This document shows, piece after piece, positions 24,842-29,606 of a DNA stretch of 64,000 bases. The DNA comes from Gemmatimonas sp. GTDB lineage: Bacteria; Gemmatimonadota; Gemmatimonadetes; Gemmatimonadales; Gemmatimonadaceae. Where the stretch lies: the NCBI GenBank assembly GCA_031414535.1, contig JANNVQ010000040.1:1-64000 (forward strand), read 5' to 3'. The position numbers and the translations under genes were made by a program. Each line of letters begins with the position of its first letter. The stretch's first letter is position 1. Under the pieces are notes generated by a model, which saw only the letters and a list, made by a program, of their open reading frames with translations, was not told where the DNA came from and ran no database searches.

Positions 24842-25771
24842 TTACGTGCTTGGGAACAGCCCTTCGATTGAGAGATAGCGCTCGCCCGTGTCGTAGCAGA
24901 ACGTGAGCACGCGGCTCCCAGCCTTCATCTCCGGAATCCTTTTGGCCACGGCCGCGAGCGAGGCGCCAGACGAAATCCCAATGAAGATTCCCTCCTCCTT
25001 GGCTGCACGCTGGGCGAACAGGAAGGCTTCTTCCTCCGTCACGGCAACCGTCCCGTCGATGGACGATTGATCGAGATTGGCCGGAATGAAGCCTGGGCTG
25101 ATGCCCTGAATCTTGTGCGGCGTGTGCGTACCACCCGCGATGACCGCAGACTTGGCCGCCTCTACCGCAAAGGTCTTCACGTTGGGCATCGTCTTCTTCA
25201 ACACGTGGCTGACGCCAGTGAGGTGACCGCCCGTGCCCACACCCGTGATTACGTAATCCAGACCCTCGGGAAAGTCGGCGACAATCTCCGCCGCGGTCGT
25301 CGTCTCGTGAATGGCCGGATTGGCCGGATTTTCAAACTGCTGCGGCACCCAGGCGTTGCCAATCTCCGCCTTGATCTCCATGGCCTTCGCAATCGAACCC
25401 TTGATGCCCACCTCGCGCGGTGTCAGCACGAGCTCGGCGCCATACGCCGTCATAATCCGCCGGCGCTCGACGCTCATGGACTCAGGCATCACGAGAATGA
25501 GTCGGTAGCCCTTGGCGGCCGCGGTGAGCGCCAGGCCGATGCCCGTGTTGCCAGACGTTGGCTCTACGATGGTCATGCCGGGCTTCAGTGTTCCGCTTCG
25601 CTCGGCGTCCTCAATCATCGCTTTCCCGATTCGGTCTTTGATGCTACCGCCGGGGTTGGCGCGTTCAAGTTTCATCCAGACTTCCACCGTGGGTGCGAGG
25701 TCTGCATACAGGCGGTTCAGCCGCACGTGCGGCGTGTTACCGATGGTCTCGAGAATGTTGTCGTATCGCAT
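24842..25771 (-). CDS. cysK: Cysteine synthase A
   Basis: [12 protein letters not shown] lysine, [31 protein letters not shown]. Confidence 0.95.
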
Positions 25772-25832: not shown

Positions 25833-25862
25833 TTGACAGAGGCCCGCTTACCAGAGTAGCAT
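25833..25862 (+). promoter_or_regulatory. Sigma70-type promoter for the phhA leader
   Basis: TTGACA (25833-38), 18 nt, TAGCAT (25857-62). Confidence 0.7.
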
Positions 25863-25871
25863 GCAAGCACG

Positions 25872-25958
25872 ATGCAAAGGAACTGCCTCCGCCCCGCCCC
25901 CTACTATTACTACGCGCCCCGGATCCCGGGACGTGGTGGCCGAGCTTTGCGAGACTAA
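25872..25958 (+). CDS. Putative Tyr-rich attenuator leader peptide MQRNCLRPAPYYYYAPRIPGRGGRALRD
   Basis: ATG 25872, TAC TAT TAC TAC at 25902-25913, TAA 25956-58; lies between promoter and terminator upstream of phhA. Confidence 0.8.
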   Translation: MQRNCLRPAPYYYYAPRIPGRGGRALRD

Positions 25959-25981
25959 GCGCAAGAATTGCTCAACCCCCT

Positions 25982-26015
25982 GCGACCCGTGGAGCTCTCC
26001 ACGGGTCGCTTTTTT
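25982..26015 (+). terminator. Intrinsic terminator (attenuator) 5' of phhA
   Basis: Perfect 12-bp stem GCGACCCGTGGA-GCTC-TCCACGGGTCGC followed by TTTTTT. Confidence 0.9.
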
Positions 26016-26040
26016 GTGTTCACTACTTTCGAGGTCAAGT

Positions 26041-26826
26041 ATGTCGCAGGCCCACGCGCACCACCATCACCATCATCTCCATGACGACGTATCGCCCGTA
26101 GAGGCGGAGCTTCCGGCATTCCGTGCGCAGGACTACTCGCGCTACACTGAGGAGTCGCACGAGGTGTGGTCCCTACTCTTTAGCCGACGCATCAGGGCCC
26201 TCGAGCAGACGGCGAGCCAGGTCTTCCTTGAGGGAATGGAGCGCATTGGCCTTGCTCCCGACCGTGCACCGGACCTCGCCGATGTAAACCGCCGTCTCGA
26301 CGCGTCCACAGGCTGGAACGCCGTCGGCGTGGATGGCTTCATCCCCGCTGCACAGTTCTTTCGCTGCCTCTCCCGCCGCCGCTTTCCCACCACGCTGGGC
26401 GTACGCCCGCGGGCCCAACTCGACTACCTCCCTGAGCCCGACATCTTCCACGACGTGTTTGGCCACGTGCCGCTGCACGCCGACCCCATCTTTGCGGACT
26501 TTCTGCAGCGCTTTGGTGCGCTCGCGGCTGGTGCGCGCACAGAACTGGAAACAGCGCAGATGGCGCGCCTCTTCTGGTTCACGGTGGAGTTCGGCCTCAT
26601 TCGCGAGAGGAACGAAGTGCGCATTTACGGCAGCGGGCTCATCTCGTCGCACGGAGACGCCGCCAACGCACTCAGCGACCGCTGCGAACGCTTACCGTTC
26701 AAGCTCGATGACGTAATCGCGCAGGACTTTGCGATTGATGACCTGCAGCCGCGACTCTTCGTGGTGGAATCGTTCGACCAACTGTTTGAAGCAGTAGAAA
26801 CGCTGGGGGCGAAACGGGCAGCCTAA
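26041..26826 (+). CDS. phhA: Phenylalanine 4-monooxygenase (pterin-dependent)
   Basis: DYLPEPDIFHDVFGHVP and WFTVEFGL (2-His-1-Glu Fe site), YGSGLISS; GAGGT RBS at 26031. Confidence 0.92.
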   Translation: MSQAHAHHHHHHLHDDVSPVEAELPAFRAQDYSRYTEESHEVWSLLFSRRIRALEQTASQVFLEGMERIGLAPDRAPDLADVNRRLDASTGWNAVGVDGFIPAAQFFRCLSRRRFPTTLGVRPRAQLDYLPEPDIFHDVFGHVPLHADPIFADFLQRFGALAAGARTELETAQMARLFWFTVEFGLIRERNEVRIYGSGLISSHGDAANALSDRCERLPFKLDDVIAQDFAIDDLQPRLFVVESFDQLFEAVETLGAKRAA

Positions 26827-26842: not shown

Positions 26843-28162
26843 TCACGTGCCGGGGCGCCGTTCCACGAGCGCCTCGCGCACGCCTCGTCCGCGCAGCGTG
26901 AGCACTTCGATGCGCGCTTCCTCATACTCCACCACATCGCCCACCTTGGGCGGCCGGCCAAGAATCGCGAGCACCAAGCCGCTCACCGACTCCACGTCGG
27001 GGTGCTCGATGTAAGCGCCAATGGCCTCAGCGGCGTCGGAGATTCGTACCGTACCCGCCACGACCAGTTTGCCATCGCCGCGCGGACGAATCTCCGCCGT
27101 GGCAGACGCGTTTTCCGTGAGCTCACCCACGACCTCTTCAATCAAGTCCTCGAGCGTGATGATGCCGGCGGTGCCGCCGTGCTCATCCATCACCACCACA
27201 AGTTGCGAGCGCTGCGCACGCATAGCGGCCAACACTTGATCGGCCGTGGTGCTCTCAGGCACGAAAGGCACCGGGCGAATCTGCAGTGAACTAATCTTGG
27301 CCCCAAGCGCCAAGCCACCGAGCAGATCCTTCACGTGCAGCATGCCGACGATGTTGTCGGGATCGCCGTCCATCACGGGGTAGCGCGAGTGCGGCGAGTC
27401 CTTCAGGATGGCATCCACTTCGGCAGCACCATCGTGCACATCAAGGCCCACGAGCTTCACGCGTGGCACCATCACCTGCGCCGCTGTGAGATCGCCAAAC
27501 TCGAGCAGTTCCTGCACCACGTTCGCGGACTGCTTCTTGAGCAAGCCGCCCGCCGAGCTCTCACGCACGATGTAGGCGAGTTCGTCTGGCGTGCGCACCG
27601 ACTCCGAGTTGGATTCCTGACGCCGTACGCCGAACAGGGCCAAGGTGGCGTTGCCAATGCCATTGAGTCCCACCACAAAGGGGAACAAGGCCAACTGAAC
27701 CACGCGCATGAACGGCGCAATCCACAGAATCGCGCGATCTGCCTTGGCCAAAGCGATGCTCTTGGGCACCATCTCGCCAATCACGATGTGCAGGTAGGTC
27801 AGCACCGCGATGGCCAGCACGGAACCCAGCGTGTGGGCCGCCACCCAACGGCCAGCACCTAGCGCATCGAGCTTCACCGCCAGCCATTCAGCGAGCAGAT
27901 GCTCACCGTACATGCCAAGCCCCAACGAGGCCAGCGTGATGCCCAGCTGTGCCGTGGCAATAAAGCGATCCACCTCACGCGGATCATTCATCACGCGACG
28001 CACGAGCCGCGCCGCACTGTTGCCCGCATTGGCGAGACGATCAATCGTCGCCTTAGGCGCGCCGACGATGGCGAATTCCGCCGCCACGAAGAGCGCGTTG
28101 GCCAGCACGAGGCCAATGACAATCAACGTAGGTGTAAGCGCGGCCGTGAATGACTCAGTCAT
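26843..28162 (-). CDS. HlyC/CorC family (CNNM-CBS-CorC) membrane protein
   Basis: FVAAEFA, QLGIT, GEMVPK, VMVPR, DEHGGTAGIITLEDL. Confidence 0.92.
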   Translation of the reverse strand: MTESFTAALTPTLIVIGLVLANALFVAAEFAIVGAPKATIDRLANAGNSAARLVRRVMNDPREVDRFIATAQLGITLASLGLGMYGEHLLAEWLAVKLDALGAGRWVAAHTLGSVLAIAVLTYLHIVIGEMVPKSIALAKADRAILWIAPFMRVVQLALFPFVVGLNGIGNATLALFGVRRQESNSESVRTPDELAYIVRESSAGGLLKKQSANVVQELLEFGDLTAAQVMVPRVKLVGLDVHDGAAEVDAILKDSPHSRYPVMDGDPDNIVGMLHVKDLLGGLALGAKISSLQIRPVPFVPESTTADQVLAAMRAQRSQLVVVMDEHGGTAGIITLEDLIEEVVGELTENASATAEIRPRGDGKLVVAGTVRISDAAEAIGAYIEHPDVESVSGLVLAILGRPPKVGDVVEYEEARIEVLTLRGRGVREALVERRPGT

Positions 28163-29471
28163 CGCCGCCCTCCGCCGGGCGCGGCTTCACGAGCAAGCTC
28201 TCCACTGCACGTCCCCTGAGCTTCTCCACTTCTACCATCGCGCCATCGATGTTGAGCGTGTCGCCCACCACGGGGAGGCGGCCTAACCGCTCCATCACCA
28301 AACCGCCCACCGTGTACGCATCGGCTTCCCAGTGCACACCCACCCAAGGCGTGGCCTCGTCCAAACGCAGGCCACCGGGCAGGCGCACGCGGCCGTCAGC
28401 CTGGCGCTGCACGCTCGACTCCTTGGGCTTGAACTCATCGCCGGTCTCGCCGAGCAGTTCGTCGAGCAAGTCGCCCACGGTGATGAGGCCCGCGGTGCCC
28501 CCGAATTCATCCGCGACGATGGCCAGCGCCTTGCGCTCGCTGCGCAGGCGCTCGAGCAAGCGGTCCACGGTCATCGTCTCGGGCACCACGAGCACGGGCG
28601 TGAGCACATCGCGCAGCGATTCCGGCGCCCCCGCGCCGGCCATCAGCGGACGCACCACGTCACGCACGTGCAGCACGCCAATGACGTGGTCGAGCGTGTC
28701 TTCATACACGGGCAAGCGCGAGTACGGCGTGCGGCGCAAGAGCTCCACCACCTCAGGCCAAGGCGTGCCTTCGCGCACGCCCACGACGCGCGTGCGCGGA
28801 ATCATCAACTCGCCCACGCTCCGCATCCCCAAGCGCAGGGCCTCGCGCAAACGCTGTGATTCCGTAGGGTCCAACTGGCCGCCCGCTCGACTCTCGGCGA
28901 TCAGATACTCGATTTCTGTGGGCGAGTGAATGTGTGCGTGGCCGTGGGCCGGCATGCGCAGTAGCCGCAGGATGGCGGCGCCGTTGCCGTTTAGAAACGA
29001 GATGGGCCACTTCAAGAAGCGCAGCGACACCACCAACGGCAGCACGGTGTAGCGTGCCGTGGCCGTTGGGAACTGTAGGGCGAGCGACTTGGGCACGAGT
29101 TCGCCGAGCACCATCATCAGAATGGTGATGACCACGAGCACCACAATGGCCGCCACGCTCTGCGCAGTGTCTATCTGCATGCCCGCCCAGCGAGCGAGCA
29201 TCGGTGCGAGGTCTACGGCCACCGTGGCCTGCGCGTAGGCGCCAAGGCCAAGCGAGGCCAGCGTGATGCCCACCTGGCAGGCCGCGATGTACCGATCCAG
29301 CGCCACGCCATCGTTGACGATGGCGAGCATCCGGGCCGCGAGACGGTCGCCTTCCTCGGCCATCTGCTGCAAACGGCTACGGCGCACGCTCACCGCCGCG
29401 AACTCGGCAGCGACGTAGAGCGCTGTAACAAGGATCAGTGCGACGATGACCGTCGCGGAGATCGGACTCAT
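28155..29471 (-). CDS. HlyC/CorC family membrane protein (tandem paralog)
   Basis: YVAAEFA, QVGIT, GELVPK, YSRLPV, DEFGGTAG; start 29471 because the longer ORF runs into the tRNA. Confidence 0.9.
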   Translation of the reverse strand: MSPISATVIVALILVTALYVAAEFAAVSVRRSRLQQMAEEGDRLAARMLAIVNDGVALDRYIAACQVGITLASLGLGAYAQATVAVDLAPMLARWAGMQIDTAQSVAAIVVLVVITILMMVLGELVPKSLALQFPTATARYTVLPLVVSLRFLKWPISFLNGNGAAILRLLRMPAHGHAHIHSPTEIEYLIAESRAGGQLDPTESQRLREALRLGMRSVGELMIPRTRVVGVREGTPWPEVVELLRRTPYSRLPVYEDTLDHVIGVLHVRDVVRPLMAGAGAPESLRDVLTPVLVVPETMTVDRLLERLRSERKALAIVADEFGGTAGLITVGDLLDELLGETGDEFKPKESSVQRQADGRVRLPGGLRLDEATPWVGVHWEADAYTVGGLVMERLGRLPVVGDTLNIDGAMVEVEKLRGRAVESLLVKPRPAEGGDD

Positions 29472-29533
29472 ACCGGAGGGAAATGAGAAGGTCCCTTGGC
29501 CGCCGGCCAGAGGGACCCAATCAGGAACAGCAG

Positions 29534-29606
29534 AGCGGGCGATGGGGTTCGAACCCACGACATCCAGCTTGGGAAGCTGGCGCTCTACCAACTGAGCTAC
29601 GCCCGC
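29534..29606 (-). tRNA. tRNA-Gly(CCC)
   Basis: Cloverleaf; CCAGC-TTCCCAA-GCTGG; upstream TTGATG-17-TATGAT. Confidence 0.95.

Follow-up and report, generated by a model that had tools for sequence, protein, structure and literature searches.

A conserved tyrosine-codon leader ahead of phhA in Gemmatimonas, a predicted transcription attenuator of phenylalanine hydroxylase

In the genome of Gemmatimonas sp. (assembly GCA_031414535.1), the predicted phenylalanine hydroxylase gene phhA is preceded by a short open reading frame (ORF) with a run of Tyr codons and by an intrinsic terminator. The question raised by this arrangement is whether phhA is switched by a ribosome that reads the leader and, if so, in answer to which signal. 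The locus lies in contig JANNVQ010000040.1, of which positions 1 to 64,000 of the forward strand (64,000 nucleotides, here called the window) were analysed, following up an earlier note that had proposed a Tyr-sensing attenuator. We consider it very likely that phhA is under classical transcription attenuation, in which a ribosome translating the leader senses how far tRNA-Tyr is charged, and that a shortage of Tyr turns the gene on. The phhA leader is a real, conserved element that on this reading is new in the amino acid sensed, in its target and in its scaffold family; the class of mechanism, which we infer here, is a textbook one.

Layout of the phhA leader and the proposed switch

The promoter, the 28-residue ORF with four consecutive Tyr codons and the 12-bp terminator followed by U6 that had been described in the earlier note are all present (Table 1); the T tract ends 25 nt ahead of the phhA ATG, and every base pair listed in that note is complementary (34/34). 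The TTGACA-18-TAGCAT promoter is the sole such site between positions 25000 and 27500 (shuffle expectation 0.3), and transcription is predicted to start at ~25869-25872. On the opposite strand, cysK diverges from position 25771. A longer PhhA, read from a 321-aa ORF that begins at 25861, was considered and rejected, as its ATG overlaps the -10 box and the starts in relatives lie near the equivalent of 26041. Across the genome, 13 of 31,311 short ATG-started ORFs (12-45 aa) hold at least three Tyr within five residues, and in just one of these 13, the phhA leader, is the ORF followed by a perfect hairpin with a T tract; the scan requires a perfect stem, so that imperfect terminators, such as that of the His leader described below, are missed. 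The unconstrained fold of the leader region has a z-score of -2.2, and no second copy of the Tyr element was found in the genome. When compared with Rfam, the leader gave only two weak, unrelated matches at E values up to 10 and, within the same limit, no match to a T-box (stem I, specifier loop, T-box bulge), whilst four related loci gave nothing at the gathering score. The leader peptide found no match in NCBIfam, nor did the leader match any of the leader families described in Rfam or NCBIfam (trp, his, phe, leu, thr).

Table 1. Features of the phhA locus, with positions in the window
Feature	Position	Strand	Detail or basis
Sigma-70-type promoter TTGACA-18-TAGCAT	25833-25862	+	-35 at 25833-38, -10 at 25857-62
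Leader ORF, 28 aa	25872-25958	+	ATG start; stop at 25956-58
Four Tyr control codons (residues 11-14)	25902-25913	+	ORF translation
1:2 hairpin (anti-antiterminator, possible pause hairpin)	25913-25935	+	25913-22 with 25926-35; pausing is a prediction
Antiterminator 2:3	25925-25991	+	Core 25925-36 with 25980-91
Intrinsic terminator 3:4	25982-26015	+	12-bp hairpin 25982-26009, then T6
Shine-Dalgarno-like word of phhA	26031-26035	+	Read from sequence
phhA, monomeric phenylalanine 4-monooxygenase, 261 aa	26041-26826	+	Homology; ATG at 26041

In the mechanism that we propose, RNA polymerase would start 0-3 nt before the leader AUG and a ribosome would load on the leaderless message. When Tyr-tRNA is plentiful, the ribosome would reach the stop codon (25956-58) and cover segment 2, upon which the 12-bp terminator would form and phhA would not be transcribed. 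When Tyr-tRNA is short, the ribosome would stall at the control codons (25902-13) and cover segment 1, and segment 2 would then pair with the 5' arm of the terminator before the 3' arm is made, resulting in read-through; PhhA would then supply Tyr from Phe in a genome in which no intact tyrA was found. The anatomy of the locus, its conservation, the covariation of two helices and the agreement between control codons and target gene can be read from the sequences; translation of the leader, stalling, pausing, the direction and size of the response and the activity of the enzyme are what we infer. Attenuation at the enterobacterial trpL, pheL-pheA, pheM-pheST and hisL leaders is summarised in passages of two papers (PMC11802643; PMC2659441). 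Like these leaders, the phhA leader has a promoter, control codons clustered in a short ORF, 1:2 and 3:4 helices that each overlap with a predicted 2:3 helix, and an intrinsic terminator before a biosynthetic gene; unlike them, it has Tyr control codons, phenylalanine hydroxylase as its target and a leader ORF that is probably leaderless.

Conservation of the leader and its RNA structure

A phhA match was found in 30 of 61 related genomes, comprising 23 loci from a close clade (three families) and 7 from a divergent clade at 43-51% identity (a second, divergent copy in G048 was left out). An ATG-started ORF with two to five Tyr codons and the same terminator precedes phhA at all 23 close-clade loci, and at none of the 7 divergent-clade loci was a Tyr leader with a terminator found. 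Over the 23 leaders, 79 of 642 residues are Tyr, 2 are Phe and 4 are Trp, and the stop codon ends 45 nt after the last Tyr codon in 16/23 loci and 42-51 nt after it in 22/23. A -35-like word lies 35-42 nt upstream of the leader ATG in 22/23 loci, a -10-like word ends 6-10 nt upstream of it in 21/23, and a Shine-Dalgarno-like word is found ahead of it in just 2/23. With the -10-like word ending so close to the ATG and Shine-Dalgarno-like words so rare, leaderless translation is suggested, and the mRNA from which the leader ORF is read probably has little or no sequence ahead of the AUG.

The leader was also sought beyond these loci. Within the genus, 17 of 26 genomes gave a match, and the eight new loci retrieved were found to comprise four Tyr leaders ahead of phhA, two Phe/Tyr leaders ahead of aroF-like genes, one His leader ahead of a hisG-like gene and one plain terminator. 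A wider set was made up of the best 80 of at least 450 named phhA loci, three of which were excluded because their upstream DNA was missing. Among the rest of these best 80, full-length matches to the leader model were found at 24/31 loci from Gemmatimonadota, 3/18 from Acidobacteriota and 0/28 from Planctomycetota and others, and a model-free scan of the same loci for a Tyr ORF plus terminator found 22, 3 and 0, respectively; at least two of the loci duplicate earlier ones, and kin are not independent. The leader passed the main test set by the earlier note, conservation of the Tyr run in relatives, the run being kept in 23/23 clade loci and in out-of-sample loci. A Tyr-rich leader with a terminator was seen at three Acidobacteriota phhA loci (L132, L169 and L179); the remaining 15 Acidobacteriota phhA loci examined gave no model match.

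Covariation was assessed in the 23-row leader alignment, using 500 shuffles and slid registers as controls. The terminator is paired in 99% of cells and has 8 cells changed on both sides, which was reached by 0/500 shuffles. The 1:2 hairpin is paired in 81% of cells (as high in 1/500 shuffles; slid controls 29-50%) and has 4 pairs with changes on both sides (14/500 shuffles), figures that are biased in its favour as the register was picked by eye from the alignment. The antiterminator core is 80% paired, against 34-49% in slid registers, and 5 of its 12 pairs are invariant; its covariation showed no excess over shuffles (197/500), with 2 double changes in the 23 rows. The antiterminator strands are nearly invariant because each of them serves a second helix too. 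Of the covarying stems that the earlier note had suggested looking for, the terminator and the 1:2 hairpin were thus found, whereas the antiterminator does not covary beyond shuffles. The pairings drawn in that note needed some revision: its outer 1:2 register (25907-14/25932-39) can pair in this genome, yet mismatches interrupt it in many relatives, and the form that is conserved is a shifted, nearly continuous helix (25913-22/25926-35). The core 2:3 complementarity is conserved, but two of the helices that the note had included in 2:3 (25942-45/25970-73 and 25947-51/25960-64) miss the terminator and sit in a poorly conserved part of the alignment.

In the codons that follow the Tyr run, third positions are frozen and amino acids vary; with synonymous positions fixed while the amino acids change, the conserved entity is probably the RNA and not the peptide. 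This pattern bears on a TnaC-like mode of induction, which we judge to be very improbable, in which the nascent peptide in the exit tunnel would bind either of the free amino acids, Tyr or Phe, and stall the ribosome, so that phhA would be on when aromatics are abundant, for catabolism. Several residues after the Tyr run do recur in most leaders, as might be expected of such a peptide; the post-run codons are, however, fixed and variable at just those positions that RNA pairing predicts, and the leaders do not show the TnaC-type signature of a conserved peptide with free synonymous sites.

The geometry of the leader is that required for attenuation by Tyr-tRNA, in that a ribosome stalled at the Tyr codons frees segment 2 and a ribosome at the stop codon covers it. 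In constrained folding of a transcript that ends in the terminator loop, with a ribosome sitting on a Tyr codon, an antiterminator core pair has a probability of 0.99-1.0, against 0.45-0.67 for naked RNA; the ribosome footprint was assumed to be 12 nt, and the zero value with the ribosome at the stop is a consequence of masking. In full-length RNA the terminator wins in every constrained fold, which means that the switch must be kinetic. Stalling raised the pairing between terminator arm and coding region by more than 0.05 in 15/23 loci, and the median pairing was 0.78 for real against 0.58 for shuffled sequences, with a median of 6 of 30 shuffles matching the real one; pairing in naked RNA already exceeded 0.5 in 13/23 loci. 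As shuffled coding segments and naked RNA pair well, folding alone is weak evidence. These controls, together with the lack of excess covariation in the 2:3 helix, would be compatible with a real, conserved terminator that simply sets a fixed or translation-independent level of read-through (a leaky terminator, or a switch driven by a protein or ligand), the Tyr codons mattering little, for which actinobacterial precedents are found in passages of two papers (PMC1262725; PMC11802643); in the former, codon changes in the Streptomyces coelicolor ilvB leader had no effect, indicating that leader codons can be inert. We nevertheless hold this to be very unlikely here, since the Tyr codons are in frame with the ATG and at a set distance from the stop in 23/23 loci, the leader matches no Rfam family and, as set out below, other control codons are used where the gene that follows belongs to another pathway.

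The same scaffold ahead of other genes

In a scan of the phylum, the leader model matched 29 of 151 genomes and 29 loci were retrieved. Seven of these lie ahead of phhA (two being training loci), 12 ahead of an aroF-type DAHP synthase gene, one ahead of a chorismate mutase-prephenate dehydrogenase gene (tyrA), four ahead of hisG with His runs and one ahead of a longer DAHP-synthase fusion with a Phe run, the other four being plain terminators (E 8e-6 or weaker). Six second matches were made up of one phhA, one chorismate mutase and two hisG leaders and two plain terminators. An automatic tally counted 33 Tyr against 1 Phe in 10 phhA leaders and 14 Tyr against 1 Phe in the 4 leaders of tyrA or mutase genes, whereas 14 aroF leaders hold 43 Tyr along with 24 Phe, and 8 hisG leaders hold 45 His and 1 Tyr; the wrong ORF was taken for L065, L070 and L082, whose correct peptides fit the same pattern. 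The control codons thus match the pathway that each leader stands before, and we see the phhA leader as one member of a leader family of Gemmatimonadota that puts one RNA scaffold to use ahead of phhA, tyrA, aroF and hisG. As Tyr codons were part of its training set, the model favours Tyr leaders, and the His and Phe leaders were matched by the scaffold alone. One aroF locus (L061), from a genome marked unpublished (G143), forms one row of this set, and no claim hangs on it alone. In two genomes (G002 and G019) both tyrA and phhA carry a Tyr leader; the model found no match at the CM-tyrA loci of G011 and G033 or at the tyrA locus retrieved from G032. That the same Tyr leader precedes the biosynthetic genes tyrA and aroF in relatives backs the direction in which phhA would be on when Tyr is short; the same observation, and the use of His codons before hisG, speak against TnaC-like induction.

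The genome studied here has no leader match at its own aroF, pheA, aroC and pterin dehydratase loci, and a 12.6-bit match inside its aro locus was dismissed as noise. It does have an ORF with a His run and a hairpin before hisG (L091:1316-1399, G000:C49), in a layout like that of the Tyr leader. The consensus scan called no promoter and no terminator for this His leader, and its folding z-score is -0.83; we regard it as a candidate His attenuator. The Phe-run leader, which comes from another genome (L078, G191), shares the scaffold too; the protein encoded behind it is at least 499 aa long and has a DAHP synthase at its C-terminus, while its N-terminal part resembles a prephenate dehydratase (by eye only).

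Taken further, these loci may represent a phylum-wide, previously undescribed family of leaderless leader-peptide attenuators, found in Gemmatimonadota and some Acidobacteriota, in which one scaffold would have been copied between operons and retuned by its control codons alone (Tyr, Phe/Tyr or His). Such a family would include a Tyr-only attenuator defining a Tyr regulon of phhA, tyrA and aroF, and would mark lineages that replace tyrA by oxygen-dependent hydroxylation of Phe; we see the chances for and against this wider proposal as evenly balanced. The shared scaffold with its swapped codons is a natural experiment on the evolution of attenuators and on attenuation in leaderless mRNAs.

Comparative surveys have reportedly been made by Vitreschak in 2004 and Lopatovskaya in 2010. 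In a full-text literature search, mostly of journals outside subscription, neither a Tyr leader peptide ahead of phhA nor any attenuator from Gemmatimonadota was found (the supplements of PMC4833913 and PMC2659441 might list Tyr leaders). The earlier note, which knew of no Tyr-codon attenuator described on phhA, is in agreement with this search. A close counterpart is known from the Bacillus cereus group, where computation predicts that phhA is preceded by a Tyr T-box (PMC2494555). The T-box shares with the phhA leader its target, its signal (uncharged tRNA-Tyr) and the reading of PhhA as a Tyr source, but it binds the tRNA directly and without translation, whilst the element described here is predicted to depend on translation of its leader. 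T-box and leader are convergent devices, and in view of the T-box prediction the Tyr-tRNA logic on phhA was already known, the device was not. In Corynebacterium glutamicum, the aroR leader before aroF has Phe-Tyr-Phe codons and, according to passages of a review (PMC11802643), responds to Phe and not to Tyr. The phhA leader resembles aroR, which has been experimentally tested, in having a leader peptide with aromatic control codons that include Tyr; aroR has a DAHP synthase gene as its target, whereas the phhA leaders are nearly free of Phe (2/642 residues). Attenuation by aromatic aminoacyl-tRNA has likewise been proposed for aroF of Shewanella and Acholeplasma, in neither case on phhA: for Shewanella aroF, Table 3 of PMC2659441 has the entry 'attenuator sensing tyr-tRNA' with reference to an E. 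coli paper of 1980, and the portion of its text that was examined gives no Tyr leader peptide, and part of PMC8632094 describes an Acholeplasma aroF uORF motif with Phe codons. If the attenuator proposed here is true, Tyr, for which no clean example was found in the literature searched, would join the amino acids sensed by classical attenuation, and what is predicted of the B. cereus T-box would be achieved at phhA by a different route, with the ribosome as the sensor. The leader would also be a 150-nt candidate Tyr sensor.

PhhA and the supply of tyrosine

PhhA scores 301 bits with NCBIfam PRK11913 (cut-off 247) and 254 with TIGR01267, slightly below the cut-off of 264.75, and among proteins of solved structure its nearest relative is phenylalanine hydroxylase of the Chromobacterium type (E 2.5e-57). 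Residues H137, H142 and E183 align with the Chromobacterium enzyme, and we take them to be the iron ligands (His-His-Glu). The residue aligned with Chromobacterium L101, a position that presumably affects the use of Trp, is Phe, and that aligned with W180, to which we assume a functional role can be ascribed, is Trp. On these grounds PhhA would turn Phe into Tyr.

The genome, which is 98.4% complete, was found to contain DAHP synthase, chorismate synthase (aroC), an AroH-type chorismate mutase, prephenate dehydratase and pterin dehydratase; a type II chorismate mutase was not found in it. No PDH_N domain scored above the cut-off (controls 14/14 positive), a weak PDH_N match proving to be a 6-phosphogluconate-dehydrogenase-type NAD-binding protein, and a search of the genome with a relative's TyrA gave nothing. 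What was found is a 3' remnant at G000:C5:16837-17034 (L094:3323-3553, minus strand), mid-contig and ~160 nt behind a tRNA-Gln gene; its 66 residues share 53% identity with a relative's CM-TyrA and match PDH_C only, as would be expected of a tyrA that has decayed or lost part of its length. The earlier note had asked whether tyrA is lacking, and indeed no intact copy was found, only this 3' remnant, but the absence is not specific to genomes with the leader. PDH_N is above the cut-off in 5/23 leader genomes and in none of the other 18/23, and in family f2 it is present in 11/12 genomes, the exception being a genome with a leader-type phhA; among genomes without a phhA match, however, 22/31 also have no PDH_N, many of them being incomplete or without a prephenate dehydratase. 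The absence of tyrA is therefore unspecific, given these 22/31 and the 5/23 leader genomes that have it. In a second genome of the same genus (G028, 99% complete), a prephenate dehydratase is present, and tyrA and phhA are unmatched.

Another contig carries an hppD gene with an hmgA-like gene behind it (L092, G000:C39:35973-38275), unlinked to phhA on C40. The hmgA-like gene was missed by PF04209, by which hmgA had appeared absent (a false negative), is far below the cut-off in TIGR01015 and was detected by HgmA_N. Tyr and Phe can thus probably be degraded in this organism. These two genes would suit TnaC-like induction for catabolism, against which stands the separation of phhA from hppD. Because hppD and the hmgA-like gene are present, PhhA can feed catabolism also, and what the leader predicts is confined to the conditions under which phhA is on. 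The earlier view of PhhA as a product-repressed, Tyr-biosynthetic enzyme is supported, in that the Tyr leader also precedes tyrA and aroF, and has to be qualified, as the two degradative genes allow catabolism. A Tyr-sensing attenuator might also serve an enzyme that is not mainly a Tyr source, acting instead in Trp or Tyr hydroxylation, in catabolism or in pigment synthesis. Such a job would be compatible with an activity that is assigned by homology, with the Phe aligned to L101 and with the promiscuity that bacterial hydroxylases can show (passages of PMC9048412), whereas the Trp aligned to W180, the score above the phenylalanine 4-monooxygenase cut-off, the failure to find an intact tyrA and induction by Tyr shortage, which fits Tyr supply only, make it very improbable. 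Attenuation in the service of Tyr supply would, if true, lend support to an anabolic function of the bacterial enzyme in genomes that have lost tyrA. It may be set against phhABC of Pseudomonas aeruginosa, which is catabolic and is transcribed from a sigma-54 promoter with the PhhR activator (as described in part of PMC1173090): the enzyme family is the same, but here a sigma-70-type promoter is combined with a predicted RNA switch that would answer a lack of product.

Two further features of the region were observed. On the minus strand, two tandem hemolysin-family CBS-domain (CNNM/CorC-like) genes, of which the domain scan covered the first only, lie at 26843-29591 and are convergent with phhA. 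The N-terminus of PhhA itself (26053-26079 of the window) is His-rich, as it is in several close relatives, and may have a role in metal binding or as a His-sensitive slow start.
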